Positions 2,025 to 16,318 of a stretch of 64,000 nt of DNA are shown here, one piece after another; the first letter of the stretch is position 1; every line of letters starts with the position of its first letter. The notes beneath the pieces are model-generated. The model was given only the letters and a program-made list of their open reading frames with translations, was not told where the DNA came from and ran no database searches. A program made the position numbers and the translations under genes. Location: positions 32,329 to 96,328 of the forward strand of contig CAYVMI010000018.1 in NCBI GenBank assembly GCA_964452555.1. The letters run 5' to 3'. Source of the DNA: an uncultured Desulfobacterales bacterium. GTDB lineage: Bacteria > Desulfobacterota > Desulfobacteria > Desulfobacterales > B30-G6.

Positions 2025-2573
2025 TTACAAGGTGTCGTGGGCACCGTTGTCGGCGGCAATGAGCACACCGGTTACGGGATAAAATTTCCAGCCAAAATCC
2101 TGCCCAGCCGAACTTCTGACCGTAATGTCGGCCTCGTCAAAATCGGCCGTGACATCTGTTTTATTGTTATACGGGTTTGTGGGCAGGGTTTGTTTTTTCA
2201 GGTAGGGTCCGTAAATGAATGCCCCTCCCTTAGTGTCTGCGGTCTGACCATCCACGTCCGTATACCGAGTCAATTGGGGCACGATGGCCGCGATGGCTTC
2301 GGCATCCGAGGCCGTGGCCGCCCCGTCGGTATGTTTGGTGGATCCGGGATACTTGCTGTCATGCTGATGGTAATAGAGCTCGACGGCATTGCGCAAGGCG
2401 CTCAGGTTGGTTGACAGCGTGTTGAGTTTGGCATCCTCGGTCGAAACCGCCACCTGCGGAATGATGATCATGGCCAGAATACCCAGCACGATCACGACAA
2501 TCAACATCTCGATCAGGGTAAAACCGGACTGTTTCCGTAGCAATCTCAACCCCTTGTCTATGGACGTTTTCAT
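2025..2573 (-). CDS. Major pilin / GspG-like pseudopilin
   Basis: MKTSIDKGLRLLRKQSG-FTLIEMLIVVIVLGILAMIIIPQ; start moved to ATG 2573 which has AAGGAG 9 nt upstream. Confidence 0.85.
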   Translation of the reverse strand: MKTSIDKGLRLLRKQSGFTLIEMLIVVIVLGILAMIIIPQVAVSTEDAKLNTLSTNLSALRNAVELYYHQHDSKYPGSTKHTDGAATASDAEAIAAIVPQLTRYTDVDGQTADTKGGAFIYGPYLKKQTLPTNPYNNKTDVTADFDEADITVRSSAGQDFGWKFYPVTGVLIAADNGAHDTL

Positions 2574-2675
2574 GACTTGTGTCTCCTTACACATACAGGT
2601 TTTCTTCCTTAAATCTCTCTGTAAATATATATCGGCAGTTTATTGAAATCCTTTAGTAAAAAAGTTAAAGGGTGG

Positions 2676-2843: not shown

Positions 2844-3995
2844 TCAATGCAAGGCTTGCGATAACTTGAACAATGGCAAAATAATCGAAGAAACTATCAC
2901 CCCCACAATCCCTCCCATCACGATCAAGGCAATCGGCTCGATCAGGGAGGCAAATTTCTTTAATTCCTGTTCGATCTCCATATCGTAAAACCGGACCAGC
3001 CGCATGAGCACCTCCGGCAGCTTACCCGCCTCTTCACCGATGGCCACCATCTGTTTCACGGTTTGAGGAATATAGGCGTACGTGGCGAAAGGCTGGGAAA
3101 ACCGCCCACCTTGATCGATATGCGTGCGGATACGCTCAACAAATTGACGGTAGTACTGATTCCAAATGGTGGGACGGGTTACGTCCATGGCTTCCAGCAG
3201 GGGTACATGGCTGTCCATGAGGTATCCCAGGGTTCTTAGCATTTCGCAGGTATATATCTTGTTCGCCAGACCGGATATGAGCGGACCGCTGATTAATACT
3301 TTGTCCAATATGCGCCGCCCCCAGGGGCTTTTGACAAACAGCATACCCCCAAAAGCAATTCCGATACTACCCAGGATGTAAACCCACCAGTACAACCGTA
3401 ACGAATCGCTGGCAGCCATGAGCAAACGTGTGGATAGGGGCAATAGGTCTTCCTTGCCTTCAAAAAATGCCGTAAACTTGGGCAGCACCGCCACCAGCAC
3501 AAATACCACCACGATCATACCAAACAGCATCAAGACCCCCGGATAGGTCAAGGCAGAGCGCAGTTGGGTCATAACGGCCTGCCGCTTTTCCTGCATCTCC
3601 ACCACCCGATCCAGAATCTTTTTAAGAAATCCGCCGGTCTCACCGGCCCGAATCATGCTGACGGTCTGTTGGTTGAATATCTTGGGGTGGCCCTGCATGG
3701 CTTCCGACAATTGACGCCCGGCCTCGATCCTCCCCGCCATATCCAGGATTGCCGCTCGAAACATTGGATTTTGAACCTCTTCGGCCACAGACTTCAAGGC
3801 CACTGTCAGAGGGGTGCCGATTTCAAGCATTAAGGCCAGCTGCGTGTTGAAAAACATCACCTCCTTGGCTGTGGCGTGCTTTTTAAACCGCTCCAGGAGA
3901 TCGCCCTGCGTAAACCCGATCTTTGGCTTCTTGATTTTAGAACCGTTTAGTGCGGCCGTATTCACGGCACCATTTGTATTAAAATTGAGAGCCAT
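2844..3995 (-). CDS. Type II secretion/type IV pilus platform protein (GspF/PilC family)
   Basis: 383 aa, duplicated GspF-type domain, three hydrophobic segments, typical ...MIRAGETGG... and ...MVAIGEEAGKL... motifs. Confidence 0.9.
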   Translation of the reverse strand: MALNFNTNGAVNTAALNGSKIKKPKIGFTQGDLLERFKKHATAKEVMFFNTQLALMLEIGTPLTVALKSVAEEVQNPMFRAAILDMAGRIEAGRQLSEAMQGHPKIFNQQTVSMIRAGETGGFLKKILDRVVEMQEKRQAVMTQLRSALTYPGVLMLFGMIVVVFVLVAVLPKFTAFFEGKEDLLPLSTRLLMAASDSLRLYWWVYILGSIGIAFGGMLFVKSPWGRRILDKVLISGPLISGLANKIYTCEMLRTLGYLMDSHVPLLEAMDVTRPTIWNQYYRQFVERIRTHIDQGGRFSQPFATYAYIPQTVKQMVAIGEEAGKLPEVLMRLVRFYDMEIEQELKKFASLIEPIALIVMGGIVGVIVSSIILPLFKLSQALH

Positions 3996-4148
3996 AATAC
4001 TACTTTAGCCTTTTAGGTATTTAGACTGTAGGCAGTAGGCGTTCAACCGCCGAAGAGCCTATTAATTCTGCTTAATGCTTCATTTGCCTTAAGCTATAAG
4101 CAACTGTGGCATTTGCCTTAGTGCTTAAAGCTGAACTCGCCCCTTCCT

Positions 4149-4234
4149 GTCATTCCCTCGGAAGAGGGAATCCAGTCAACACCGTCTGCTAATAGCTAAA
4201 GGCTTTTCTGGATCCCCGATTGCTCGGGGATGAC
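4149..4234 (+). repeat. Dual-hairpin REP-like element, copy B
   Basis: gtcATTCCCTCggaaGAGGGAATccag ... ctgGATCCCCGattgCTCGGGGATgac; the first stem differs from copy A by a compensatory pair (G-C to T-A). Confidence 0.85.
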
Positions 4235-4405
4235 ATCCGTATGTTGGGATGTTCGATGTTAAAGCAGTTTATGCTGGATACTGCTTTAGCTTTTTAGGTG
4301 TTTAGACTGTAGGCTGTAGGCGTTTAACCGCCTAACAGTCAAAAAGTCTTCAGCCTAACAGCCTTGACTCCTGAATTCTGTCTTCTGACTTCTGTCTCCT
4401 GTCTC

Positions 4406-4615
4406 CTAAACTAACGATCTCGCCTTCTTCACATCCCCCACCAGCTCGATGTTGCCGCAGTCCAGACACATAAAACCTTTTACAGCCAAGTCGGCTGTCT
4501 GCATCGCAAAAAAATTGACGCTATCCGGTCGAAAATATACCCTGCCGGATGATTGAGCCTTACCCGCGGCCATTTTTTTGCTGCCGCATCGCAAACAAGA
4601 TTTTTGATCGGTCAT
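4406..4615 (-). CDS. Small zinc-ribbon protein (CxxC ... CxxC), function unknown
   Basis: 69 aa; CLRCGS ... CLDCGN pairs; isolated between two repeat-filled spacers inside the pilus operon. Confidence 0.5.
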   Translation of the reverse strand: MTDQKSCLRCGSKKMAAGKAQSSGRVYFRPDSVNFFAMQTADLAVKGFMCLDCGNIELVGDVKKARSLV

Positions 4616-4835
4616 GGTTGTTGTCTCTTTTCCTTGGTTTTTATTAATGTCGTATTCTCATTCCCCATTTTATCGAAATGAAAAGTAAAGGCCAGGATGC
4701 CGGATGCTTGATCCTTGATGCTAGTTGCTGGATGCTGGTCAACCCGCAACCCAATTCCCGTAACCCTTCACACCTCCAAACCTACACCCTCCAACCCTCT
4801 CTAACAGCCTAACAGTCTTCAGCCTAATAGCCTGG

Positions 4836-6542
4836 TTAAATGTCCAACGACGACACCCGATGCACCTCCTCAATCGTGGTCTGGTGCTCGAGCACCTTTT
4901 GATACCCCGCCGTCTTAAGACCGCGATATCCGTTGGTGTTACAGTGCTTTCGGATCTCATCGATGGTGGGATTCTCCAGGATCAGGGTTTGCAAATCCGC
5001 ATCCATGGTCAAGAGTTCATGGATGCCGGTCCGGCCTTTGAATCCGGAGTCGTAGCATGCGCGGCAGCCTTCACCCCGATACAGCTTTTGACGCTTTTTA
5101 GCATCGATTCCCAACGCGGTCATTTCAACCTCCGAGGGGAAATAAGCCGCTTTGCACTCCGGGCATATGGTCCGCACCAGACGCTGGGACAGAGCCGCCA
5201 GCAGAGACGACGACAGCAGATAAGGCTCGATCCCCATCTCCAGCAGCCGCGTGATGGAGCTGGGGCTGTCATTGGTATGCAAGGTGGAAAGCACCAGATG
5301 ACCGGTCAGCGAAGCCTGAATTGCGATCTCGGCTGTCTCCCGGTCGCGGATCTCCCCCACCATAATCACGTCCGGGTCCTGCCGCAGGGCATGCCGGATA
5401 AAAGTGGCAAACTTGAGTCCGATGGCCGCATTGACCTGGTTTTGGTTGATATCGGCGATCTGGTATTCCACCGGATCTTCCACCGTGATGATATTGCGCT
5501 CGGGAGTGTTCAGCAGCGAAACTCCTGAATACAGGGTCGTGGTCTTGCCGCTGCCGGTGGGTCCGCATACCAGGATGAGACCATGGGAAGACCGCACAAG
5601 CGATTTAAATGTTTCCAACAAATCTTCGTCGAAACCCAGGCTGTTCAAATCCAGGATCGCCTGGCTGCGATCGAGGATCCGCATGACCACCTTTTCACCG
5701 TATACCCCCGGCATGGATGAAAAGCGCAGATCCACCACTTTGCCGTCCGCCACCACCTGGATACGACCATCCTGGGGCAGGCGTCTTTCGGCAATATTCA
5801 GCTTGGACATGACTTTCAGCCTGGAAACCACGGCCGGATGCAGCTCGATTTTTTGGGGGCGCTGTTCATACAACATACCGTCCACGCGCACCCGAATACG
5901 TAAGCGGTCTTCCTGGGGTTCGATGTGGATATCGCTGGCGCCGTCTCGTATGGCACGCAACAAAATCAAATTGGCGAGATTGACGATGGGGCTGTCCTCA
6001 GCCATTTCTGCCAGTTCAGCTATTTCAGCCTCGGAACGCCCCTCCACCACATCGATGCTGGATTCATCGGCGCTGGACATGAGTTCATCGATGCTGGCAT
6101 CTCCCTGATAGGCCTGGGGAATCGCCTCTAAAATATCTTCGGAACGACAGATGACCGGCTGAACCTCAAGATTGGTTATTTTGCGCACTTCATCAAAAAC
6201 ATTAAACCCATAGGGGTCCGATGTTGCCAGGGTGATCACTCCGTTGACCACAAACATGGGCAGAACCTGGTAATGGAGGGCTTTTTCCTTGGGTAGAATT
6301 TGGACGATCTTGGGATCCACCAGGCCTTTGCGCAGCCAGACATGCGGAATCCCCATCTGCTCACCCAGGGCCTTGGACAGTTCCTCCTTGGTTAAGATGC
6401 CCTCATCGATCAGCAGCTGTCCTAAGGGTTTGCCGGTTTCCTTTTGCAGACGCAATAAGCTGGTTAGTTTTTCCGGTTCAACCTTGCCGCTTTGAACCAG
6501 AATTTCCCCCAGCTTCCTTCTTTTTTTGATGATGCGCGTCAT
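4836..6542 (-). CDS. GspE/PilB/MshE-family secretion ATPase with N-terminal MshEN-type c-di-GMP-binding domain
   Basis: 568 aa; Walker A GPTGSGKTTT, Asp/His boxes, tetracysteine CPECK...CRAC; N-terminus carries two 24-residue MshEN-like motifs (see findings). Confidence 0.95.
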   Translation of the reverse strand: MTRIIKKRRKLGEILVQSGKVEPEKLTSLLRLQKETGKPLGQLLIDEGILTKEELSKALGEQMGIPHVWLRKGLVDPKIVQILPKEKALHYQVLPMFVVNGVITLATSDPYGFNVFDEVRKITNLEVQPVICRSEDILEAIPQAYQGDASIDELMSSADESSIDVVEGRSEAEIAELAEMAEDSPIVNLANLILLRAIRDGASDIHIEPQEDRLRIRVRVDGMLYEQRPQKIELHPAVVSRLKVMSKLNIAERRLPQDGRIQVVADGKVVDLRFSSMPGVYGEKVVMRILDRSQAILDLNSLGFDEDLLETFKSLVRSSHGLILVCGPTGSGKTTTLYSGVSLLNTPERNIITVEDPVEYQIADINQNQVNAAIGLKFATFIRHALRQDPDVIMVGEIRDRETAEIAIQASLTGHLVLSTLHTNDSPSSITRLLEMGIEPYLLSSSLLAALSQRLVRTICPECKAAYFPSEVEMTALGIDAKKRQKLYRGEGCRACYDSGFKGRTGIHELLTMDADLQTLILENPTIDEIRKHCNTNGYRGLKTAGYQKVLEHQTTIEEVHRVSSLDI

Positions 6543-6907
6543 GATCTCTTGTGGGCCAGGGCTTCGTTGATATCCTTGTAAACAAACAGTATGTTAATAA
6601 TGCGCGTGGCCAAAAGAATATCCCGACAGACTTCATTCAGGCCGGCGATTTTAAGGGCACCCCCATTCTGCATTAGATTATCATGGGTTTCCACCAGCAA
6701 CTCCAAAGCCGCGCTGTCCAGGTGATCCACCTTTTTTAAATCCAGGATGATTTCTGTATGGCCGGCGTATATTTTCTCCTTGATTTTTTTATCTAGGTTC
6801 TCACAATTTTCCCAGGTGATCGATTGCTTCAGGGCCAGAGCCGCACGCCCGTCGATATTAACGCTTTTGACGGAATCCCCCTCCTGAGCTTGTGGTTTAG
6901 TTGGCAT
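6539..6907 (-). CDS. STAS-domain protein (anti-sigma-factor-antagonist fold)
   Basis: Internal start of track ORF 6539..7252: MPTKPQ...ILDLKKVDHLDSAALELLVE...GGALKIAGLN; GGAGAGGTG SD upstream of ATG 6907; stop overlaps ATPase start (ATGA). Confidence 0.85.
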   Translation of the reverse strand: MPTKPQAQEGDSVKSVNIDGRAALALKQSITWENCENLDKKIKEKIYAGHTEIILDLKKVDHLDSAALELLVETHDNLMQNGGALKIAGLNEVCRDILLATRIINILFVYKDINEALAHKRS

Positions 6908-8417
6908 AAGACACCTCTCCCACCAGGTAGCCGGCCTCATCCACGATTTGGCTAAATACGGACACAATCTTGGGATCCAACTGACTGCCGGCCACTTCTT
7001 TAACGATAGACAAAGCTTTGTATAATGATTTGGCCGACCGGTAGGACCGGGTGGAACTGATGGCATCGAAAGTGTCGGCCACTGCGATAATTCGGGCTGA
7101 TAGGGGAATCTGCAGACGGGCCAGACCGCTTGGATATCCGTTGCCGTCATAACGTTCATGGTGATGCAGGATGCCGGGCAGAGACTCCACCAACTGTTCC
7201 ACCGGCTTGAGAATCTCAAATCCCTTGGCCGGGTGGTCTTTGACAACCTCAAACTCCTCCTCGGTCAATTTGCCGGGTTTGTTCAGAATGGTCTCCGGGA
7301 TACCGATTTTGCCGATATCGTGTAAAATTGAGGCCCAGCGAAGCGCCTCCAGTTCACCACCCTGCATACCCAATTTCCTCCCTATTTGCATGGAATACTG
7401 GGAAACGCGCTCAGAATGACCCCGGGTGTAAACGTCTTTAGCCTCGATGGCAAAGACCAGCGACTTGACCATGTTGATGATAAATACTTCCAGGTCCTGG
7501 TACAGGTTGGTGTTTGCAATCACTACACTTAACTGTTCAGCCAGAGAAACCAAAAGCTGCAATTCACCCTGGCGGAAAATTTCATTCATATTAAAGGATA
7601 CCAGCCCCAGCCAGCCATAGAATCCTTCTTCATGGTCGATCCGGACTGCCAGGAAACGGAACTCTGTCTGGGAGAATGATCGGTAGACCGGATTTGAACC
7701 GGATCGATTGACTATAAAATACTTGTCTCCGGTTGAGATAATCTCCTCGGGGATGGAATCAATCAGCCTGTGATAGAAACTCATATCTTCCCTTAGGTGA
7801 TCATCAAGGTTAGGTTGAGCAACCAGCGTATTGTATTCGGGACTATCGTTTAAGATAGCAAAGGCAGCATCTGAACGCAGGTTGATCAGCAAACTTTTGA
7901 TCAAGCTTTCCAGCATTGTGTTGGAAAATTTCAGCGTCTTGATCTGCGATGCGATTTTACCGTAAAGGAAAAGATCTTCAAAAGACTGGTCCAGCTCTTC
8001 GGCCAGGTCATTGACCTCTTCCCGCGCCTCCCAGCTTTCCTGAAGCAGCTTGGCCAAACTACCCAGAAAATTTTCCATCTCCATGGCATGTTGCCAAACA
8101 CGGGGGTCGTCAGATGCCTCCGTGGCCTGGGTACGGCTCTCATCCTCATAAGCGATCAAGGTTCCAAAGGGACCTTTTCCGTTGGACAATGGATACCCGC
8201 ACATGAATTGGCGGCCGTTATATAGGTCATGCTGATAGCGATTTTCCCTCAACACAATTTTAGACAAACCTTGAATCGCTTGGTTAAAGCTTGGATCCGT
8301 ATCATTCTGCTCCGGGTCGGGATACAGCATATGGCCGTTAAGATCCCATACCTGATAATGTAGTTGACTGATGGGTGTCAGATTTGTCAGAAATTCTTTC
8401 AGCTCGGTCAATTCCAT
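6897..8417 (-). CDS. HD-GYP c-di-GMP phosphodiesterase with N-terminal sensory (GAF-like) region
   Basis: HSERV...LHDIGKIGIP...HHERYDGNGYPSGL motifs. Confidence 0.9.
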   Translation of the reverse strand: MELTELKEFLTNLTPISQLHYQVWDLNGHMLYPDPEQNDTDPSFNQAIQGLSKIVLRENRYQHDLYNGRQFMCGYPLSNGKGPFGTLIAYEDESRTQATEASDDPRVWQHAMEMENFLGSLAKLLQESWEAREEVNDLAEELDQSFEDLFLYGKIASQIKTLKFSNTMLESLIKSLLINLRSDAAFAILNDSPEYNTLVAQPNLDDHLREDMSFYHRLIDSIPEEIISTGDKYFIVNRSGSNPVYRSFSQTEFRFLAVRIDHEEGFYGWLGLVSFNMNEIFRQGELQLLVSLAEQLSVVIANTNLYQDLEVFIINMVKSLVFAIEAKDVYTRGHSERVSQYSMQIGRKLGMQGGELEALRWASILHDIGKIGIPETILNKPGKLTEEEFEVVKDHPAKGFEILKPVEQLVESLPGILHHHERYDGNGYPSGLARLQIPLSARIIAVADTFDAISSTRSYRSAKSLYKALSIVKEVAGSQLDPKIVSVFSQIVDEAGYLVGEVSYAN

Positions 8418-8794
8418 TAGGTGGTTTCCCCATTGTATGCTTGTATATTCTGTAATATTTCCATTGGGCTGAATGGCTTTTCCAGTAATATGGTATCTTG
8501 CAGCTCTTTGACCCAGATAATGTCTTGCGGATCTATACGGGCGGTCACCACGATGGTCAGAAAAGGTTTCTCCTTTTTAAGCGGGTTGGTTCGAATGCAA
8601 AGCGTTTTGCCGTCCATTATGGGCATATTGATGTCGGTTATGACCACATGGGGCCGGTTCTCTTGAATCAATTCCAGAGCTTCCTGCCCGTTTTTGGCCA
8701 TGACTACCCGCATACCCTGCTTTTTGAGTTTGATTTCCAAAACCCGGCGGATATGGGCTTCATCGTCTACTATAAGTGCCGTTTTAATCGTCAA
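8417..8794 (-). CDS. Single-domain response regulator (CheY-like receiver)
   Basis: ALIVDDE...VVITDINMPIMDG...; I prefer the TTG start at 8794 (GGAGGA 8 nt upstream, 11-nt overlap with kinase) over track ATG 8851 (68-nt overlap). Confidence 0.8.
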   Translation of the reverse strand: MTIKTALIVDDEAHIRRVLEIKLKKQGMRVVMAKNGQEALELIQENRPHVVITDINMPIMDGKTLCIRTNPLKKEKPFLTIVVTARIDPQDIIWVKELQDTILLEKPFSPMEILQNIQAYNGETT

Positions 8795-10634
8795 TGTAGT
8801 ATTCCTCCATGGGAATGCTAATGATAAAATAGGTGCCTTTTCCGAGTTCACTTTTTACGTCGATCCTGCCACCATGCAGGTTGATAATCTCTGCAGCAAT
8901 GCATAATCCCAAGCCGGTACCTTGATTATCCTGAACCTTGGGATTGGACGAACGATAGAATTTATCGAAAATGTGATCCAGATCTTCCTGGGACATGCCG
9001 TAACCGGTATCGCTGATATCAAAAATGATATTGCCGCCCTCTTTCCGCAAGCCGAAGTCGATCACACCCTTTTGGGGCGTGTATTTAACCGCATTTCCGA
9101 GTATGTTGATAATGGCCCCCTTGAGCAGCTCTTTATCCCCCATAAAAACCGGGAAATTGTCAGGTGCATGACGCTCGATGGCGATCCCCTTTTTCTTGGC
9201 GCTGCCTTGCACCGAGACTAGACAATCCGTAAACAGCGAATCGGATTTAACAATATCTTTACTCAATGTAAGGCTGCCCATCTCGATTCTTGAGAGGTTC
9301 AGTAAATCTTTGATCAACCGCGATAGTCTCTTGGTTTCCTTGTTGATGGTATTAAAAAATTCCTTTTGGGTCTCAACATCCTCAATTTCACCTTCCATCA
9401 ACATTTCGCTGTAGGATTGAATGGTCGTCAGCGGTGTCATGATCTCATGCGACAAGTGGGCCACAAAAGCGATGGTATTTTTTTCCGCGTTTTTCTGGGT
9501 GGTAATATTGTTGAACGTAATTAAACTACCCGAAGAATGATTGTCTGCTCCGGTTAACGGCGTACAGGTGACTGAAAAGACATCTGTCTCCGAAAGCTCC
9601 GTAAGGGATAGCTCCACATGGTTTTGGGCCCGCAGCTGTTCTAGGCTGCCTTGTTGCGAAATGAAATGCACCAGAGCTGAATTGGAAAAAACTTCCTCAA
9701 AAGGCCGGTCGATCATATCGCGCCGAGTTTTGCCCAGATGCATCAACAGATAGTCATTGATGTGAACCACGCAGCCTTGAATATCGATAATCATGATGCC
9801 GTAATTAATGGTATTGAGAATATCGACGATCTGCCTTTTTTCATATTTGACGACACCCACCTGGGAGGCCAGACCCTTGTTATTTCCCTCGATTTTTTTG
9901 AGCTGTTTTTTCAATCGCACCAAAGCCACATGAAAATCTTTAATCATGCCATCAATGCTACCGATGCCGAAGGCCCGGGCCAACTCGTTTTTGGTCCGAC
10001 GCCGCGATGATTTGGGCACCAACTTGGAAACGGTCCCCCGGAGCGGCTTGACTGCCTGAAGGATGCCGTATTGGAATATGATGACGACGGCGGTAATAAA
10101 AAAGAAAAGCATCCCCAACAGGCTGATCCTTTCCTTGGTAAATAGGGATAGCGGCTCGAGCATCAGTCCGATATTAACGGTACCGGCCCGCTCCCCGTTT
10201 TCGAAAATCGGTTTTGAAAAGTCGAAAAGCCGGGCATCGTTATCTGTAAACTCAAAGGGTGAAAACACCAGCCCGGCCGCTTTTACCCTGCTTGAGTTTT
10301 GATCATTCTTGATGGCCAAATTGACCTGGGGCAGCCTAAAGGAAACCAATGTGGCCCCCGATCGATCGACAATGTGACAGTATGCCAGTCCTTCCTTGGT
10401 GGAATACTCCATCAGGGTTCTCACGAAGAAATCATGTTCCTTCTCAAAGGTTGCCATCGGTTGTAAGGCGATCAAGCTGACCAGGTGGTTGCCTTTGGTA
10501 TAGACTTCCTGGACCCGCTCCTTATTTTCGGTCCTGAGTTGAAAATTGGTTATAACAAATAGGCCCGAGAAAATGAGTAATATGAGAAAAAAATTGATGG
10601 CTTTTGTTTTCAGCACGTCGATGCTTCCCTTCAT
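8784..10634 (-). CDS. Membrane sensor histidine kinase (two TM segments, extracytoplasmic domain, PAS, HisKA, HATPase_c)
   Basis: H-box FVAHLSHEIMTPL, G-boxes DTGYGM and GTGLGL; start moved to MKGSIDV (ATG 10634, AAGGTGGTG upstream). Confidence 0.9.
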   Translation of the reverse strand: MKGSIDVLKTKAINFFLILLIFSGLFVITNFQLRTENKERVQEVYTKGNHLVSLIALQPMATFEKEHDFFVRTLMEYSTKEGLAYCHIVDRSGATLVSFRLPQVNLAIKNDQNSSRVKAAGLVFSPFEFTDNDARLFDFSKPIFENGERAGTVNIGLMLEPLSLFTKERISLLGMLFFFITAVVIIFQYGILQAVKPLRGTVSKLVPKSSRRRTKNELARAFGIGSIDGMIKDFHVALVRLKKQLKKIEGNNKGLASQVGVVKYEKRQIVDILNTINYGIMIIDIQGCVVHINDYLLMHLGKTRRDMIDRPFEEVFSNSALVHFISQQGSLEQLRAQNHVELSLTELSETDVFSVTCTPLTGADNHSSGSLITFNNITTQKNAEKNTIAFVAHLSHEIMTPLTTIQSYSEMLMEGEIEDVETQKEFFNTINKETKRLSRLIKDLLNLSRIEMGSLTLSKDIVKSDSLFTDCLVSVQGSAKKKGIAIERHAPDNFPVFMGDKELLKGAIINILGNAVKYTPQKGVIDFGLRKEGGNIIFDISDTGYGMSQEDLDHIFDKFYRSSNPKVQDNQGTGLGLCIAAEIINLHGGRIDVKSELGKGTYFIISIPMEEYYIDD

Positions 10635-11052: not shown

Positions 11053-11874
11053 GTGAACGATCGTAATCGAACCAAGCTGACCACCATGGAGGTTCTGACT
11101 ATCATATTTTTTTCGTTGATATGCACCATCATCATGGACCACTTGGATGCATATGAGCGTCTGCAGTTGTTCATTATCGAAAATAATATATCTGTGTTTG
11201 ACGAATTCATTGTTTTCTTTCCGGCATTCATAGCCATGGGATTCATCCTGTTTTCAACTAAGCGAGTACAGGAACTAGGCTCGGAAGTTATGCGCAGACA
11301 GAAAGCGGAAGCGGCCTTAGTTGAAAGTGAAAAAAAATACCGCGAACTCAGCATCACAGACGGACTGACCGGGCTCTATAACCAACGGCACTTCTACCAT
11401 CGTCTGGACGCTGAGATTGATCGGGCGCAACGCTATTCAATACCTTTGACCGTTCTCTTAATGGACGTGGATGACTTTAAGCTATTCAATGATACCTATG
11501 GTCATCTGGACGGAGATAAGGTTCTCAAAGAAATTGGCCGCATCATCCACGCCTTTATTCGCAGGTCGGATTCTGCCTTCCGTTATGGCGGCGAGGAATT
11601 CGTCGTTATCATGCCGGAAACAAATGGCAGCAGCGCTCATACGGTGGCAGATCGAATACGCGAAGGCTTTAAACAGCACATTTTCATCACCCACAATAAA
11701 TCAGCCGAACAATTAACCCTGAGCTTGGGTATAGCCGAATGTAATCCCGGTGAAGATTCCCGCACCCTTGTAAAAAGGGCTGATTTCAACATGTACTGCG
11801 CCAAGAAAAACGGCAAAGACCAAATCTGTTATTCCAACCAGGATCCCAACCTCAAACATGCCATCGGATTTTAG
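11053..11874 (+). CDS. Membrane-anchored diguanylate cyclase (GGDEF)
   Basis: GTG start with AAGGAG 6 nt upstream; active site RYGGEEF with RxxD I-site (RRSD) five residues upstream; two N-terminal TM helices. Confidence 0.9.
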   Translation: MNDRNRTKLTTMEVLTIIFFSLICTIIMDHLDAYERLQLFIIENNISVFDEFIVFFPAFIAMGFILFSTKRVQELGSEVMRRQKAEAALVESEKKYRELSITDGLTGLYNQRHFYHRLDAEIDRAQRYSIPLTVLLMDVDDFKLFNDTYGHLDGDKVLKEIGRIIHAFIRRSDSAFRYGGEEFVVIMPETNGSSAHTVADRIREGFKQHIFITHNKSAEQLTLSLGIAECNPGEDSRTLVKRADFNMYCAKKNGKDQICYSNQDPNLKHAIGF

Positions 11875-12068
11875 GGACATCCTATAAAAGAAGGCTTGCA
11901 ACTACCGGCATCGGTCCTATATTTTCACCTATATTGTTTGATTTTATCTCTTGTAAAATTCATATTTAATGGAAATTGGGCCAAAATCGACCTGTAACCG
12001 ATAATCAATGCTAACAGCAAAGAGCCACAAGTTAATGGCTGGCTTAAACGAGATCCGAGAGGTGAATT

Positions 12069-13538
12069 ATGCTTAAACTGAAAACTATTGATCTCCAAAA
12101 GGAAAAGGTTGCCACAGTGGCGGTGCCCGTATGTGAGGATAAAGACATTCACACAGGGGTTTTATCCAAACTTGTGGCCCAGGCCAAAAAGATAGAAGAA
12201 TTTAGCGCCAAAAAAGACGAGGTTCTCACCCTTTACAATCCTGATGGAATCCAAGCTGAACGGGTGGTATTTATTGGCCTGGGAAAACAAGCTGACCTTG
12301 AGCCTGAAAAACTTCGCTCGCTTGCCGGTAAGGCTGTAGCGGCTTGCATTAAAAATGGTCTCAAAGAAATTGTCATCGCCGCCCCGACCCTAAAGAAAAT
12401 TCCCACTTCCGAATCCGATACGCTGACCGCTTTGCTGGAAGGTGCCTGTCTGGCAAATCACGTATTTGACCGCTATAAAAAAGAAAAAAAACTCAAACCG
12501 CTTAAAAACATATCTCTGCATGTATCCGCCGGGAGTGCTAAAAAATATGCGCGAATGCCCAAACGAATCCAAACGATCTGTCAGGGAACACTGTTAGCCC
12601 GAGATTGGATCAGCACGCCCTCCAATGATAAAACCCCGGCTCAGTTGGCCCGGGCCTTTGTCAACCTGGCCCGCAAAGCCCAACTCAGAACCAGCGTTTT
12701 AACCCCCAAACAGCTGCAACAGGGTAAATTCGGCGCACTGCTGGCTGTCGCCGCCGGTAGTGACAATACGCCCCGTCTGGCTACCCTGGAGTATGCCCCC
12801 AAGAATTGGAAAAAAACGGTTGTTCTGGTGGGCAAAGGGGTCACCTTCGATTCCGGCGGCATCAATCTGAAACCTTCCGGTGGTTTAGAGGATATGAAAA
12901 TTGATATGTCCGGTGCCGCCGCCGTGGCGGCTACGCTATTGACCGTGGCCAAACTCAAACCCCGATCACGCGTCATCGGCGTCATGCCGCTGGTGGAAAA
13001 CATGGTTTCCGGAAGGGCAACGCGACCGGGTGACATTATTAAAAGCTATGCCGGTAAGACCGTCGAAATCGGCAATACCGACGCGGAAGGAAGACTGATC
13101 CTGATCGATGCCATGGCCTATGCCCTAAAAAAATACAAGCCGGATGTGATGGTGGACATCGCCACCCTGACAGGTGCCTGTGTGGTAGCTCTGGGCGAAA
13201 AAATCGCCGGCCTGTTTACCCGCGACGATGCCTTGGCCGAAACCCTTTTGTCTGCCGGCGAAAAGACCCATGAGCGCCTGTGGCGGATGCCCTTGCCCGA
13301 TGACTATTTAAAACTCATGAAAAGCGAGTTTGCCGACCTGAACAACATGAGCAGCACCCGCTGGGGCGGCGCCATTACGGCGGCCCTGTTTCTGTCCGAA
13401 TTTACCGAAGGCACGCGCTGGGCCCATATCGATATTGCCGGCCCGGCCTACCAGAAAAAGGCCAGCGAATACTGCCCGGCCGGCGGAACCGGATTCGGTG
13501 TGAGGCTGTTTTGTGATCTGATTGACAACCTTAAATAG
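12069..13538 (+). CDS. pepA: Leucyl aminopeptidase (M17)
   Basis: 489 aa; VGKGVTFDSGG, NTDAEGRL motifs. Confidence 0.95.
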   Translation: MLKLKTIDLQKEKVATVAVPVCEDKDIHTGVLSKLVAQAKKIEEFSAKKDEVLTLYNPDGIQAERVVFIGLGKQADLEPEKLRSLAGKAVAACIKNGLKEIVIAAPTLKKIPTSESDTLTALLEGACLANHVFDRYKKEKKLKPLKNISLHVSAGSAKKYARMPKRIQTICQGTLLARDWISTPSNDKTPAQLARAFVNLARKAQLRTSVLTPKQLQQGKFGALLAVAAGSDNTPRLATLEYAPKNWKKTVVLVGKGVTFDSGGINLKPSGGLEDMKIDMSGAAAVAATLLTVAKLKPRSRVIGVMPLVENMVSGRATRPGDIIKSYAGKTVEIGNTDAEGRLILIDAMAYALKKYKPDVMVDIATLTGACVVALGEKIAGLFTRDDALAETLLSAGEKTHERLWRMPLPDDYLKLMKSEFADLNNMSSTRWGGAITAALFLSEFTEGTRWAHIDIAGPAYQKKASEYCPAGGTGFGVRLFCDLIDNLK

Positions 13539-13554
13539 AATTTGTTGAGTTAAT

Positions 13555-13595
13555 AAAAAATTCCCAATCGGTGATACCGTTTGGGAATTTTATAT
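13555..13595 (+). terminator. Rho-independent terminator after pepA
   Basis: aattcccaa(13 nt loop)ttgggaatt followed by tttat. Confidence 0.6.
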
Positions 13596-13661
13596 GGGAT
13601 TGACAAATCCATATCGATGATGATATTGTAATACGAAATTAATATCGATTGAGGAGTTGTT

Positions 13662-13868
13662 ATGCAAACAGTTACTGTATCGCCGAAATTTCAGGTCGTT
13701 ATACCAAAGGTCATTCGTGAGGCTATGCAGATCCGTCCCGGCCAAAAGTTAAAAATCATCGAGTATGATGGACGAATCGAATTAATCCCAGAAAAGGACA
13801 TCGTAGAATTACAAGGATTTCTTAAAGGTATTAATACGAATTTCATTCGAGAGGACGACCGCCTATGA
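13662..13868 (+). CDS. vapB: AbrB/SpoVT-fold antitoxin (VapB-type)
   Basis: MQTVTVSPKFQVVIPKVIREAMQIRPGQKL; 4-nt overlap with the PIN gene. Confidence 0.8.
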   Translation: MQTVTVSPKFQVVIPKVIREAMQIRPGQKLKIIEYDGRIELIPEKDIVELQGFLKGINTNFIREDDRL

Positions 13869-14242
13869 ATATTGTGGATTCCTCGGGATGGCTTGAATAC
13901 TTTTCAGACGGCTTCAATGCAGAGTATTATAAGCAACCGCTTCAAAATCCTTCTGACTTGATCGTTCCATCCATAACTATTTACGAAGTTTTTAAGGTTG
14001 TTCTACGCGAAGCCGATGAAAAAAATGCACTGCTATCCATAGCTGCCATGCAAAAAGGAACGGTTGTTGATTTAAATCCCAGCATTGCCATCAATGCTGC
14101 CAAGCTGAGTCTTAATCATCATCTCCCTATGGCGGACAGCATTATATTAGCCACTGCAAAAAAGTATGACTGTCTTATTTGGACTCAGGATTCCGATTTT
14201 AAAAATCTACCAAATGTTAATTATTTTCCGATTAAAAAATAA
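13865..14242 (+). CDS. vapC: PIN-domain ribonuclease toxin (VapC)
   Basis: IVDSSGWLEY ... ADSIILATAKK ... WTQDSDF acidic PIN residues. Confidence 0.85.
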   Translation: MNIVDSSGWLEYFSDGFNAEYYKQPLQNPSDLIVPSITIYEVFKVVLREADEKNALLSIAAMQKGTVVDLNPSIAINAAKLSLNHHLPMADSIILATAKKYDCLIWTQDSDFKNLPNVNYFPIKK

Positions 14243-14260
14243 CGATATTCCCTATATTCA

Positions 14261-14300
14261 AAGCCCCAATCGGTTACTAACCAATTGGGGCTTTTATTTC
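14261..14300 (+). terminator. Rho-independent terminator after vapC
   Basis: agccccaat(13 nt)attggggct + ttttattt. Confidence 0.7.
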
Positions 14301-14351
14301 ATATCAATTTAAGCGGCGATGCCACACCCGCTGTAAAATTGCAAAGGATTG

Positions 14352-14480
14352 GTACCTGAGTTGAGCGATTGTCGAGGTTGCCGCATATACAAGGAAGATG
14401 CTTTTCCGCTATAGTTGACTATGCGGGACAGCATCTGACGCCGTAGATGTGGTGAGATCGGCAATCCCGGAGGGTTTTAG
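14352..14480 (+). repeat. Rod-like structured repeat (about 113-nt core), copy 1
   Basis: attgtcgaggttgccg...agatgct..ccgctatag-ttga-ctatgcgg..agcatct...gatcggcaatccc; near-identical to 18842..18969. Confidence 0.8.
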
Positions 14481-14561
14481 TCTTTGGGATATAAGATCGA
14501 TATCATTCCTTGATTTAAAGTATTCACAATTCACCCCAAAAACTAAAACGCTCAGTTCAGG

Positions 14562-15527
14562 TTAGAGCTCTTCGATCGCTTCCGTCAACTCCGGCAGAAA
14601 ATCGAGGATGTCGGCTTCGATGCCCACATCCGCCACCTGAAAAATAGGGGCCTTGGGATTTTTATTGATGGCCACGATAAAGGGATTGCCTTTGATCCCG
14701 CCCAAATGCTGGAAGGAGCCGCTGATCCCGCAGGCCAGGTAAACCTTGGGCTTGACCGTCTGGCCGCTCGTACCCACCTGCCGTGATTTTTCCAGCCATT
14801 TGGCGTCTACGATGGGACGCGAACAGCTCACTACGGCACCCATGGCCTTGGCCAGGTCTTCGGCGATTTCAATATTGTCTTCGTCTTCGATGCCGCGACC
14901 AATGGATACCAGCACATCCTCTTTGGTAATATCCACGTCACCTACTTCTGCCACCACGGTTTCAAGGTAGGTCCGCTTGGTGGACAAATCACCGGCTTCC
15001 CCGGATTTATCTACCACCTGGCCGGAAGCGCTTTTGCTTTCATCCGGTTGAAATGCCCCGGGCCTTACATTGACAACGGCTCCGGCGGCAATATCACAGG
15101 TTACATGGGTGCTGACCGCACCGCCATATTCCTGGCGCACGCATTTGAGAACCGAACCGTCCATGCCCTCAAATCCGACCACATCGGCCACAAAAGCCGA
15201 GTCCATTTTAATGGAAAGACCCGGTGCCAGATCCATACCAAAAGTATCGTGGGGCACCAAAAGCGTGCCATCGGCAGGCAATATGTTTAGTAAAACATTG
15301 CGGATGATTTCAGCATTGGGGTATGCCAGGGCCTCGTTTTCCACCTTCCAAACCTCGGCATAAGATGCCGCCAGATCATTGCAGAGCGCTTCGATCCCCG
15401 AACCCACGACTATGGCTGTGGGCGCTGCACCGGCATCGAGCTGTTTGGCCGCAGTTACCAGCTCCAGAGCTGAATCATCAGGGACCCCGTCCTTATACGT
15501 AATATAACTAAAAATCTGTCCTGACAT
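14562..15527 (-). CDS. etfA: Electron transfer flavoprotein alpha subunit
   Basis: 321 aa; C-terminal FAD-binding signature ...YLACGISGSFQHLGG... Confidence 0.95.
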   Translation of the reverse strand: MSGQIFSYITYKDGVPDDSALELVTAAKQLDAGAAPTAIVVGSGIEALCNDLAASYAEVWKVENEALAYPNAEIIRNVLLNILPADGTLLVPHDTFGMDLAPGLSIKMDSAFVADVVGFEGMDGSVLKCVRQEYGGAVSTHVTCDIAAGAVVNVRPGAFQPDESKSASGQVVDKSGEAGDLSTKRTYLETVVAEVGDVDITKEDVLVSIGRGIEDEDNIEIAEDLAKAMGAVVSCSRPIVDAKWLEKSRQVGTSGQTVKPKVYLACGISGSFQHLGGIKGNPFIVAINKNPKAPIFQVADVGIEADILDFLPELTEAIEEL

Positions 15528-16318
15528 TATTTGAGCCCTCCTTTGGCCTTGAGTAGTTCAATCAGTTTCTCAACGATCTCTTCGGTACTGCCTTCCAGCA
15601 TCTCAGCACCTTCTCCCAGCTCCGGAACGAAATAGTCCAACCGTTTGACACCGGCACCGGCGGCGCCGACGGCCTCGGCCGCCAGCCCCAGGTCTCCGGG
15701 ACCATGCACTGGGATATCAATGGATGCAACCTTGCGGATGCCGCGGATACCGACATAGCGCGGTTCGTTGATACCGGTCTGGATGGAAAGTACGCAAGGC
15801 AAAGTTATTTCACTCATTTCCTGGTTGCCGCCTTCGATTTCCCGCCCAATCTTAAGCTTTTTGTCATCAACGACCTCTATGGCGTTGACCAGCGATGCAT
15901 AGGGCACATCCAACATGGCCGCCAGCATGCCACCCACCTGACCGGCACCGTCGTCAGCCTGGGCTCCGGTCAAAATCAGGTCGTAATTACCTTTTTCCAC
16001 AGCGGCCTTCAGGATGGATGCAATGCCTTTACCATCGGAGTCTTCAAAGGCATCATCGGAAAGCAGCAGGCCGTTGTCGGCACCCATAGCCATTTCGCGC
16101 CGGACCACCTCTTCGGATTCCTCATCACCCACCGAAACCACGGTGACGCTGCCGCCTTTGTCATCCCGGATCTGGATGGCTTCCTCTACGGCATAATTGT
16201 CCCATTCATTGACCGAATATACCAGATCATCAGTTTCAATCCCGCTGCCGTCGCTGTTGACCTCGATTTCATTCTCTGCTGTATCCGGTACTCTTTTGAC
16301 ACATACCAAGATTTCCAT
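15527..16318 (-). CDS. etfB: Electron transfer flavoprotein beta subunit
   Basis: MEILVCVKRVPD... typical EtfB N-terminus; TAATG junction with etfA. Confidence 0.95.
   Translation of the reverse strand: MEILVCVKRVPDTAENEIEVNSDGSGIETDDLVYSVNEWDNYAVEEAIQIRDDKGGSVTVVSVGDEESEEVVRREMAMGADNGLLLSDDAFEDSDGKGIASILKAAVEKGNYDLILTGAQADDGAGQVGGMLAAMLDVPYASLVNAIEVVDDKKLKIGREIEGGNQEMSEITLPCVLSIQTGINEPRYVGIRGIRKVASIDIPVHGPGDLGLAAEAVGAAGAGVKRLDYFVPELGEGAEMLEGSTEEIVEKLIELLKAKGGLK

Follow-up and report, generated by a model that had tools for sequence, protein, structure and literature searches.

After PilZ, MshEN is the second truly widespread receptor module for c-di-GMP, and by 2016 more than 10,000 proteins carrying it had been listed. 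In its structural description (Wang et al. 2016, PMC5013675), L2 and G3 of each 24-residue motif provide backbone hydrogen bonds to the phosphate and the guanine and belong to a leucine cluster, L17 and L21 build triangular hydrophobic clusters beneath the guanines, G-x backbone readers select guanine O6 and N7, and Q24 is described solely as a hydrogen-bond donor to the ligand (ribose 3'-OH and phosphate). PMC11731258 gives position 1 of the motif as R in the original consensus and as R/K/L in an extended form. For Thermus thermophilus PilF, the same paper reports that D266 hydrogen-bonds the guanine amino group, that the domain GSPII-C binds c-di-GMP with an affinity similar to the 500 nM of MshEN, and that GSPII-B, whose first residues are the non-Arg K167 and L196, binds at 6 nM, a hydrophobic first residue even improving binding. 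PilF GSPII-A is a non-binder (PMC12002112): a T5/D8 Ncap box extends its helix 1 into the pocket, and helices 1 and 7 are in tight contact. In engineered GSPII-A fragments, on the already weakened A41 background, Ser at position 1 of half-site II left no detectable binding; full-length GSPII-A still did not bind when given a perfect consensus, owing to the helix capping and the subdomain contacts, so that an intact motif is insufficient for binding. Outside pilus systems, Escherichia coli NfrB, a glycosyltransferase that c-di-GMP activates, carries MshEN at its C-terminus and is locally controlled by DgcJ (PMC8669469).

Here, we describe a domain of this type in the window, that is, the whole analysed stretch of 64,000 nucleotides from an uncultured Desulfobacterales bacterium. 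We consider it likely that residues 1-149 of a pilus-type ATPase form an MshEN (GSPII) domain whose bundle, residues 10-62, is a predicted one-monomer c-di-GMP site governing a type IVa-pilus-like motor. The ATPase gene and the parts of its N-terminal domain are as follows.

4836-6542, minus strand: gene for a PilB/GspE-family assembly ATPase, 568 amino acids, with the catalytic core at residues 180-562 (window 4857-6005)
6357-6515, minus strand: 53-residue tandem c-di-GMP motif (MshEN_N subdomain), residues 10-62, a predicted four-helix bundle, supported by translation, NF053729, and AlphaFold
6444-6515, minus strand: half-site I, residues 10-33 (K10 L11 G12 ... G19 K20 V21 ... L26 ... L30 ... 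Q33)
6429-6443, minus strand: spacer KETGK, residues 34-38, with K38 immediately before half-site II
6357-6428, minus strand: half-site II, residues 39-62 (P39 L40 G41 ... G48 I49 L50 ... L55 ... L59 ... Q62)
6096-6356, minus strand: C-terminal alpha/beta subdomain of MshEN, residues 63-149 (Pfam PF05157, E 2e-16), containing D109

The catalytic core is covered by PF00437 (T2SSE) over positions 2-370 of 370 (E 6.8e-136), and the translation contains a Walker A motif, GPTGSGKTT, and four Cys (CPEC...CRAC). The gene scores 595 bits with TIGR02533 (GspE; cutoff 630) and 588 bits with TIGR02538 (PilB; cutoff 676), in both cases just short of the equivalog cutoff, so that these scores assign neither an ATPase subtype nor, by themselves, a T2SS or a T4P machine.

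An earlier note had placed tandem MshEN-type motifs at 6357-6515, with a gap of five residues between the copies. Translation of the minus strand gives KLGEILVQSGKVEPEKLTSLLRLQ-KETGK-PLGQLLIDEGILTKEELSKALGEQ, ATPase residues 10-62, so that coordinates, sequence, and gap are all exact; two 24-residue motifs and a 5-residue spacer make up a 53-residue unit, as MshEN requires. Both half-sites keep L2-G3 (L11-G12 and L40-G41), L17/L21 (L26, L30, L55, and L59), and Q24 (Q33 and Q62). At positions 6-7, 10, and 11-12, copy 1 has L15-V16, G19, and K20-V21, and copy 2 has L44-I45, G48, and I49-L50; the central hydrophobic positions and the turn Gly are thus all kept, with the sole exception of K20, at position 11 of copy 1. 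K10, at position 1 of motif I, falls inside the extended R/K/L consensus, whereas P39, at position 1 of motif II, lies outside both the original and the extended forms. Every ligand-contact position is present apart from this one, and the N-terminus has a run of basic residues, K6-K10, like the basic patch of MshE. The note's remark that the K in copy 1 is the only deviation from the pattern does not hold, as copy 2 opens with P39 rather than R or K.

Owing to K20 and P39, neither copy satisfies the strict pattern: the regular expression of the earlier note had no match when the window was translated in all six frames, and the half-sites were therefore compared residue by residue. The relaxed pattern of Wang et al. 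(2016), [RKPN]hGxxhhxx[GAS]hh....h...h..[QNKRYWST] (PMC5013675), accepts copy 2 and not copy 1. When position 1 was set to [RKLP] and position 11 left free, only these two sites were found in the 85,818 amino acids of the six-frame translation, and the same expression had no match in 200 residue shuffles; the match of the tandem motif is far beyond chance.

The NCBIfam model NF053729 (c-di-GMP-binding domain, MshE-related) aligns residues 10-62 to its positions 1-53 of 53 (52.8 bits, cutoff 38, E 2.5e-14). In a calibration, MshE scored 86 bits, the ATPase segment 57.7 bits, and PilF GSPII-A, which is proven not to bind, 55.3 bits, a score that also passes the cutoff; the model is no discriminator of binding, because a non-binder scores about the same as this protein, and its score was rejected as a stand-in for binding. 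Pfam MshEN (PF05157) was likewise rejected as a test of the motif, since it spans residues 63-149 only. The HMM check that the earlier note had suggested thus finds the tandem motif, whereas binding is undecidable by HMM, and neither model in current use is suitable for calling binding competence.

The AlphaFold model (mean pLDDT 77.7) consists of a four-helix bundle and an alpha/beta subdomain. The helices occupy residues 11-17, 23-36, 40-46, and 52-62, with pLDDT values of 84-92 over residues 11-50; a low-confidence linker (residues 66-73) follows, and then three strands and further helices. The best PDB match of this model in Foldseek is 5HTL, V. cholerae MshE with c-di-GMP (E 7e-9, probability 1.00). 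Helix 1 begins at residue 11 and does not reach into the pocket, in a model in which residues 1-10 have a pLDDT of about 52. No capping box of the form S/T/D-xx-E/Q/D stands before K10, where I5 and R8 take the places of T5 and D8 of GSPII-A. The model has low confidence for residues 1-10 and for the inter-subdomain linker, and the orientation of the subdomain in it is uncertain; a pocket blocked as in GSPII-A may therefore still exist. D109 in this subdomain aligns with PilF D266 and is the counterpart of that residue and of MshE D108; the pair D109-P110 is invariant in alignment A1.

The ligand-contact positions are near-invariant in 117 orthologs with 64-94% identity to the ATPase. In half-site I, position 1 is K in 85 orthologs and R in 29, G3 is present in 117 of 117, L17 in 110, L21 in 116, and Q24 (Q33) in 116. 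In half-site II, position 1 is P in 103 orthologs, and G3, L17, and Q24 (Q62) are each found in 117 of 117. L17 and L21 of both half-sites are kept in 110-117 of the 117, with L or I at the last one. Given the role described for Q24, Q33 and Q62 appear to have no structural function and to be kept for hydrogen bonding to a ligand only. The two deviant residues are not peculiar to this genome: position 11 of half-site I is K or R in 85 of 117 orthologs, so that K20 is the norm of the clade, and K-P-L-G at the start of half-site II is a clade signature, the last spacer residue being K in 105 and R in 6 of the 117. K-P-L-G and G-K-[LV] are both shared with Thermus PilF GSPII-C, whose binding of c-di-GMP is proven.

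Together, NF053729, the gapless alignment with MshE, the AlphaFold match to 5HTL, and the near-invariant contacts in orthologs support the assignment of the N-terminus to the MshEN-type (GSPII) domains, and its homology to MshEN is secure. Binding of c-di-GMP by this domain is strongly predicted; it is a prediction only, because the HMM scores GSPII-A equally and because Ser at position 1 abolished binding in the PilF construct.

The genes surrounding the ATPase gene are listed below.

8784-10634, minus strand: PAS-containing sensor histidine kinase, the first gene of the operon (HisKA, HATPase_c, PAS_9; gene call in the locus L087)
8417-8794, minus strand: single-domain response regulator (REC; PF00072, E 9.4e-21; gene call in L087)
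6897-8417, minus strand: predicted HD-GYP c-di-GMP phosphodiesterase, 506 amino acids (PF13487, E 2.3e-39; PF01966, E 3.5e-21)
6539-6907, minus strand: STAS gene, anti-sigma-antagonist-like (PF01740, E 4.3e-13; gene call in L087)
2844-3995, minus strand: PilC/GspF platform protein (PF00482, E 1.2e-51; 62% identity to its counterpart in the related locus L081)
2025-2594, minus strand: major pilin/pseudopilin with N-methylation motif (PF07963; 77% identity to the L081 pilin)
1471-2019, 1028-1633, and 2-616: further pilin-like genes, the last of which leaves the window (616 to 2 is the homologue of the fourth pilin-like gene of L081)
11053-11874, plus strand: predicted membrane GGDEF diguanylate cyclase, divergent (PF00990, E 4.9e-47)

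The order of the operon is thus histidine kinase-REC-HD-GYP-STAS-ATPase-PilC-pilins. The REC gene overlaps the HD-GYP start by 1 nt, and the stop codon of STAS and the start codon of the ATPase gene share the sequence ATGA. Behind an uncharacterised N-terminal region of 300 amino acids, the HD-GYP protein has an intact HD (LHDIGK) and the motif HHERYDGNGYP, which follows the definition HHExh(D/N)GxGYP (bioRxiv 10.1101/2021.11.05.467447); by these motifs it is a predicted c-di-GMP phosphodiesterase. The GGDEF protein has the active-site sequence GGEEF and an I-site, RRSD, 5 residues upstream. An Rfam scan of the whole window gave no RNA family at the gathering threshold.

In related loci, PilMNO and a secretin come after the pilins. 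We favour a type IVa-pilus-like machine, because PilM, PilN, PilO, and the secretin are present in the orthologous loci; that this operon too continues into these genes is an extrapolation from those loci, since the 11-kb contig of the window's own protein ends at the ATPase.

Among the Desulfobacterales, the order histidine kinase-REC-HD-GYP-STAS-ATPase-PilC is kept in loci L081-L084 and L086, and the synteny with HD-GYP persists down to 66% ATPase identity. A STAS gene stands directly upstream of the ATPase gene in each of L081-L087 (for L085, on the basis of a phmmer match to an open reading frame) and in at least eight loci of the Planctomycetota. In a survey across phyla of relatives with at most 47% ATPase identity, among the matches listed in a search of contigs, the Planctomycetota loci L004, L005, and L008 have REC-HD-GYP-STAS-ATPase-PilC and L010 has HD-GYP-STAS-ATPase, and in L019 a GGDEF gene occupies the HD-GYP slot. 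Two homologs are in-frame fusions of STAS and ATPase. The GGDEF neighbour itself is found only in L086 and L087; it is conserved among close relatives alone (ATPase identity of 83% or more) and not in the wider clade. The earlier note had linked the ATPase to both c-di-GMP genes of the locus; for HD-GYP this is upheld by the tight packing, the synteny down to 66% identity, and the Planctomycetota, whereas for GGDEF it does not extend beyond the close relatives.

By analogy with MshE and PilF, each guanine would rest on a triangular cluster of leucines (L11, L55, and L59 for one, and L40, L26, and L30 for the other), and the backbone NH groups of G12/E13 and G41/Q42 would read the Hoogsteen edges. 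The ribose-phosphate ring would receive hydrogen bonds from Q33 and Q62, and D109 of the C-terminal subdomain would reach the amino group of a guanine. Guanine 1 would lie under K10. At guanine 2, K38-P39 stands in place of the canonical Arg, and either P39, as a hydrophobic lid comparable to L196 of GSPII-B, or K38 might take over its part. The ATPase would drive a type IVa-pilus-like machine, and the HD-GYP phosphodiesterase, probably controlled by the PAS histidine kinase and the single-domain REC of the same operon, would lower c-di-GMP near the motor, the GGDEF cyclase raising it in this lineage. The occupancy of the MshEN site could then set the activity of pilus assembly, as for V. cholerae MshE. 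What the analysis shows is the homology, the intact motif and its conservation, the predicted fold, and the conserved operon; that the ligand binds and how tightly, in which direction it acts on the ATPase, and which enzymes supply the site are inferred.

How firmly the site can be assigned depends on what else the domain might be. It could, with low probability in our judgement, be a GSPII/MshEN homologue without useful affinity for c-di-GMP whose only role is to dock PilM, STAS, or another protein, as in GSPII-A and the Xanthomonas PilB N-domain, both of which are among its top sequence and fold matches. The stacking Arg is replaced by P39, at the position where Ser abolished binding in GSPII-A-derived constructs, and the HMM fails to separate binders from the non-binder. 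The translational coupling of STAS to the ATPase and the in-frame fusion of the two in two homologs also suggest a protein partner for the N-terminus. However, GSPII-A departs from the consensus at six key positions and this ATPase at P39 alone, and the binder GSPII-C carries the same K-P-L-G. Moreover, Q33 and Q62, which are described solely as hydrogen-bonding the ligand, are retained in nearly 100% of the orthologs, and HD-GYP or GGDEF recurs in the same operon slot in two phyla among the matches listed.

Another cyclic dinucleotide, e.g., 3'3'-cGAMP, could be the physiological ligand, with the HD-GYP enzyme acting on it; some HD-GYP enzymes hydrolyse cGAMP (bioRxiv 10.1101/2021.11.05.467447). 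The half-sites are asymmetric (P39 versus K10), and a figure legend of PMC5013675 reports that V. cholerae MshEN binds cGAMP detectably, albeit more weakly. We judge this very improbable, since G-x backbone readers for guanine O6/N7 are present in both half-sites, the neighbouring cyclase is of the canonical GGEEF type, and none of the operon genes examined was noted as a cGAMP synthase. That a helical, Leu-rich N-terminus merely resembles MshEN by chance has in its favour that the strict published pattern fits neither of the copies; the profile match (E 2.5e-14 over all 53 positions), the absence of matches in 200 shuffles, the gapless alignment with MshE, the retention of the motif in 117 orthologs, and the fold match to 5HTL refute it, and its probability is negligible.

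Beyond the c-di-GMP site itself, we tentatively propose, as a possibility that we consider less likely than not, that the coupled genes for REC, a c-di-GMP enzyme (HD-GYP or, in Gimesia, GGDEF), STAS, and the MshEN-ATPase form a self-contained local signalling module. STAS would dock on the ATPase N-domain and tether or gate the phosphodiesterase at the motor, and the pilus ATPase would read a private c-di-GMP pool through its K-P-L-G variant of the MshEN pocket. Our literature search found no account in which a component of STAS partner switching is connected with the ATPase of a type IV pilus. Such a module would span the Desulfobacterales and the Planctomycetota.

MshEN on another pilus ATPase is expected rather than surprising, because the module is widespread and has a dedicated HMM at NCBI; judged from its sequence, the N-domain is a solid but ordinary addition to this receptor family. 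It provides a candidate, testable c-di-GMP receptor for the uncultured Desulfobacterales, and an operon that co-translates a receptor ATPase, an HD-GYP protein, and STAS is a natural choice for studying how c-di-GMP signals locally at the motor of a pilus. If binding is confirmed, the clade-wide K-P-L-G of half-site II would widen the consensus at position 1 from R/K/L to include P.

We know of no module of histidine kinase, REC, HD-GYP, and STAS, as found in this operon, in the V. cholerae msh locus. The domain itself is shared: in MshE (PDB 5HTL; Wang et al. 2016, PMC5013675), it likewise opens a PilB/GspE-type ATPase, with two 24-residue half-sites (R9-Q32 and R38-Q61), a 5-residue spacer, a basic N-terminal patch, and an Asp in the C-terminal subdomain (D108). 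MshE residues 3-67 align without gaps to ATPase residues 4-68, with about 26% identity over the domain, and K10/L11/G12/L26/L30/Q33 of half-site I correspond to MshE R9/L10/G11/L25/L29/Q32, as do L40/G41/L55/L59/Q62 of half-site II to L39/G40/L54/L58/Q61. Unlike MshE, this ATPase has K10 for R9, K38-P39 for R37-R38, and K20 at a core hydrophobic position.

PilF of T. thermophilus carries three tandem GSPII domains, and this ATPase carries one. Its domains GSPII-C and GSPII-B are described in PMC11731258 (PDB 8PDK, 6EJF). GSPII-C shares the K-P-L-G start (P335) and the turn G-K-[LV] with this ATPase. Three half-sites make up GSPII-C, the first spacer being 7 residues long, in contrast to the two half-sites and the 5-residue spacer described here, and the P335 motif is the middle one of the three and is therefore part of either consecutive motif pair. 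The non-binder GSPII-A (PDB 9G1W; PMC12002112) is similar in sequence score (51.6 bits), in fold match, and in the range of its NF053729 score, and it is also non-basic at position 1 of half-site II (S39, as P39 here). Six of its key residues are off consensus (H33, S39, A41, I55, I59, and R62), whereas this ATPase deviates only at P39 and has Q33, G41, L55, L59, and Q62 at the others. The N-domains of Xanthomonas citri PilB (7LKM/7LKO, complexed with the protein PilZ) and of XpsE (2D27/2D28) show the same GSPII fold on a pilus or secretion ATPase; these domains are much weaker matches by sequence (E 4e-8 to 1e-3, versus 1e-12 or better for MshE and PilF). Finally, NF008411 and NF012033, the models of E. 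coli NfrB, match the MshEN segment of the ATPase over the same residues. NfrB differs in that its output is a glycosyltransferase rather than an ATPase and its local enzyme a cyclase rather than an HD-GYP phosphodiesterase, and it stands as a precedent for an MshEN receptor with a dedicated, co-localised c-di-GMP enzyme.

The ATPase is encoded on the minus strand of the window, and its N-terminus carries two copies of a 24-residue motif, here called half-sites I (residues 10-33) and II (residues 39-62).

4836..6542, minus: ATPase open reading frame, 568 aa (ORF translation)
6357-6515, minus: tandem motif KLGEILVQSGKVEPEKLTSLLRLQ KETGK PLGQLLIDEGILTKEELSKALGEQ, ATPase residues 10-62 (translation)

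Translation of window:6357-6515(-) reproduces exactly the two blocks and the 5-residue spacer that the earlier note had read as c-di-GMP-binding MshEN motifs. The start codon is well supported, because it overlaps the stop codon of the STAS gene (ATGA) and the orthologs start at an equivalent place; the motif begins at residue 10-12 in 109 of the 117 orthologs that have the N-terminus among the best 120 relatives. A single deviating position had been counted, but there are actually two: K20 at a "hydrophobic" position of copy 1, and P39 for R/K in copy 2. Used as a regular expression, the pattern given in that note matches nothing when the window is translated in six frames. The relaxed search pattern of Wang et al. 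2016, which permits [RKPN] at position 1 (PMC5013675), accepts copy 2 and rejects copy 1. With [RKLP] at position 1 and position 11 free, the two copies are the sole matches in 85,818 aa of six-frame translation, and the same pattern has none in 200 shuffles. Residues 10-62 match the whole of a curated NCBIfam model, NF053729 ("cyclic di-GMP-binding domain, MshE-related"; positions 1-53/53, 52.8 bits vs. a cutoff of 38, E 2.5e-14). Together, the shuffles and the NF053729 match rule out a chance resemblance.

The N-domain as a whole (residues 1-149) is almost certainly of the MshEN type. The T2SSE ATPase core behind it is complete (Pfam, residues 180-562, E 6.8e-136), and the protein scores slightly under both the GspE and the PilB equivalog cutoffs. 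Matches to the first 157 residues among PDB sequences are the GSPII domains of Thermus PilF, Geobacter PilB, and Vibrio cholerae MshE (5HTL, E 2e-12). The alignment with MshE 3-67 has no gaps and pairs the motif positions as follows, with R9 and R37-R38 of MshE standing where the ATPase has K10 and K38-P39.

Half-site I: K10=R9, L11=L10, G12=G11, L26=L25, L30=L29, Q33=Q32
Half-site II: K38-P39=R37-R38, L40=L39, G41=G40, L55=L54, L59=L58, Q62=Q61

Residues 1-160 were modelled with AlphaFold from a 38-sequence alignment (mean pLDDT 77.7; 84-92 over residues 11-50). The predicted helices (11-17, 23-36, 40-46, and 52-62) are followed by a linker of low confidence (66-73) and then by an alpha/beta subdomain. 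Among PDB structures the model matches 5HTL, "MshE with cdg", best (E 7e-9), followed by Xanthomonas PilB-N and PilF GSPII-A and GSPII-B. The TM-scores of these matches are only about 0.4-0.5, as expected from the flexible linker that joins the two subdomains.

Domain membership is one matter and ligand binding another. We calibrated NF053729 (cutoff 38 bits) on known domains, including the three tandem GSPII domains of Thermus thermophilus PilF.

NF053729 scores of known domains and of the ATPase segment
V. cholerae MshE: 86 bits
Geobacter PilB (not used here as binder or non-binder): 70.4 bits
PilF GSPII-B, binder: 63.4 bits
PilF GSPII-C, binder: 62 bits
ATPase segment: 57.7 bits
PilF GSPII-A, proven non-binder: 55.3 bits

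Because all the calibrated domains exceed the cutoff, GSPII-A included, the model proves domain membership, not binding. In other words, the HMM search proposed in the earlier note does assign an MshE-related domain (57.7 bits) but cannot separate binders from a non-binder (55.3 bits), and the opposing outcome named there, assignment of a non-binding GspE N1 domain, would not settle the matter in either direction. The Pfam match to PF05157 "MshEN" (residues 63-149) covers, in the release used, the C-terminal alpha/beta subdomain only, and the nucleotide motif lies outside the model. A hit to either model is no evidence that c-di-GMP is bound.

Thousands of relatives came from a search of 5.8 billion proteins. 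We used the best 120 (64-100% identity), which are metagenomic; those with names are MAGs of Desulfobacterales, Syntrophobacterales, or "Deltaproteobacteria". The positions that contact the ligand hardly vary.

Residues at motif positions in the 117 orthologs that include the N-terminus
Position 1: motif I K85/R29; motif II P103, preceded by K105/R6
Position 2: motif I L/I; motif II L115
Position 3: motif I G117; motif II G117
Position 17: motif I L110; motif II L117
Position 21: motif I L116; motif II L94/I23
Position 24: motif I Q116; motif II Q117

Position 11 of motif I is K or R in 85/117. Since the equivalents of K20 and P39 prevail, both are fixed features of the clade, not decay. The only role described for the two position-24 glutamines is as hydrogen-bond donors to ribose and phosphate (PMC5013675). 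We infer no obvious structural role for Q33 and Q62, and, conserved in nearly 100% of the orthologs, they give the best indirect indication of selection on the pocket for ligand binding. In the C-subdomain, D109-P110 is invariant (ortholog alignment A1), and D109 aligns with PilF D266, which hydrogen-bonds a guanine amino group and is the counterpart of MshE D108 (PMC11731258).

One objection to binding is P39, on which the literature cuts both ways. When Ser was restored at position 1 of half-site II in GSPII-A-derived constructs, detectable binding was lost, in an A41 background that was already weakened (PMC12002112). Even when its motifs are mutated to match the consensus perfectly, full-length GSPII-A does not bind: an added turn of helix 1, stabilised by an Ncap box, and close contacts between the subdomains block the pocket (PMC12002112). 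On the other side, the capping box of GSPII-A, T5 and D8, is absent from the ATPase, which has I5 and R8 there and in whose model helix 1 begins at residue 11 (residues 1-10 being of low confidence). K167 and L196 begin the two motifs of GSPII-B, whose affinity is 6 nM; mutating them to Arg weakens binding, and the authors' widened consensus reads (R/K/L)LG... (PMC11731258). GSPII-C, with an affinity reportedly similar to the 500 nM of MshEN, has one listed deviation, P335, the residue that opens its middle motif (PMC11731258). Its context, R-A-K-P-L-G-E-I-L-V, shares K-P-L-G with the start of half-site II of the ATPase, and its turn G-K-L resembles G19-K20-V21. As every consecutive pair of its three tandem motifs includes the middle one, a Pro-initiated half-site would take part in a working pocket. 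The position also varies naturally in more distant ATPases (M, L, R, K, P, S, V). We therefore predict that the domain probably binds c-di-GMP at physiological levels.

From the histidine kinase to the pilin-like genes, the operon lies tightly packed on one strand; the genes around the ATPase are, in operon order:

8784-10634, minus: PAS histidine kinase (HK)
8417-8794, minus: single-domain REC
6897-8417, minus: HD-GYP, with HD and HHERYDGNGYP motifs intact
6539-6907, minus: STAS, followed by the ATPase
2844-3995, minus: PilC/GspF, after the ATPase
running on past the window's left edge, minus: pilin-like genes, after PilC/GspF
11053-11874, divergent from the operon: GGEEF diguanylate cyclase with RxxD I-site

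Residues 1-300 of the HD-GYP protein have no Pfam match in the window's protein, are conserved in the Desulfobacterales orthologs (phmmer, loci L081-L087), and in one of these show a weak GAF_2 match; this region may be an input domain receiving the REC signal. The ATPase-PilC spacer (3996-4835) is about 840 bp vs. 30-160 bp in orthologous loci. It has the look of an insertion or duplication within the operon. Two repeats occur in it: a direct one of 61 nt (3997-4057 and 4278-4338, 89% identical), so that the stretch immediately ahead of the PilC start is present twice, and one of 33 nt (4332-4364 and 4801-4833). The spacer also holds a 69-aa ORF on the minus strand (4406-4615) that encodes two CxxC pairs.

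Orthologous contigs whose ATPases are 70% and 66% identical keep the order HK-REC-HD-GYP-STAS-ATPase-PilC-pilins; PilM, PilN, PilO, a small ORF, and a secretin come next in them, which favours a type IVa-pilus-like machine. The pilin-pilM interval varies (L084 15716-18136; L086 13803-19449), with an 806-aa NHL/TEN-repeat protein in one locus and opposite-strand genes, including a PKD-like protein, in another, which suggests lineage-specific cargo or tip proteins. No GGDEF gene adjoins the operon in the 70% and 66% loci; GGDEF, M17 peptidase, and ETF neighbours are common only to the window's own contig and its 83%-identical relative. The series GGDEF, M17 leucyl aminopeptidase, ETF alpha/beta (window 11053-16318) recurs in that relative (L086), which has a Y1-transposase gene between the GGDEF gene and the kinase, a kinase split into two gene calls, and a DUF502 gene instead of the toxin-antitoxin pair.

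13662-14242, plus: MazE-antitoxin/PIN-domain toxin pair, flanked by the genes for the M17 peptidase and ETF (Pfam and gene calls on the identical contig L087)

Among the matches listed in a more distant survey (80 loci, 40-47% ATPase identity), STAS lies directly upstream of the ATPase in eight, all Planctomycetota. REC-HD-GYP-STAS-ATPase-PilC is found in L004, L005, and L008 (Phycisphaerae and other Planctomycetota, 43-46%), and HD-GYP-STAS-ATPase alone on the short contig L010; all four HD-GYPs keep the HHE..GYP motif. In L019, a Gimesia MAG, the place of HD-GYP is taken by a GGEEF protein next to REC. A c-di-GMP enzyme thus recurs beside this ATPase subfamily, which supports the molecular link drawn in the earlier note, strongly for the HD-GYP protein and less so for the GGDEF protein.

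The ATGA overlap couples translation of the STAS (anti-sigma-antagonist-like) gene to that of the ATPase gene, and the STAS protein retains what we take to be the D-S of the SpoIIAA phosphorylation site. Two ATPase homologs, P0042 and P0058, are in-frame STAS-ATPase fusions (696 and 691 aa) with different junction sequences; they hint at a physical STAS-ATPase interaction, or could possibly be a sequencing artefact. On the model of MshE and PilF, the kinase and REC would control the HD-GYP enzyme and so set the local nucleotide level, the four-helix bundle would bind one monomeric c-di-GMP, and its occupancy would modulate the assembly ATPase and thereby piliation; the STAS protein may couple the components physically.

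Our searches of the literature found no paper describing the HK-REC-HD-GYP-STAS-ATPase cassette, and its conservation is a modestly new aspect, as is K-P-L-G as a clade-wide variant of half-site II. MshEN itself is a well-described and very widespread receptor (>10,000 proteins by 2016), known from gsp and pil operons and from fusions to HD-GYP, REC, and other domains, and the N-domain of this ATPase is another member of that family.
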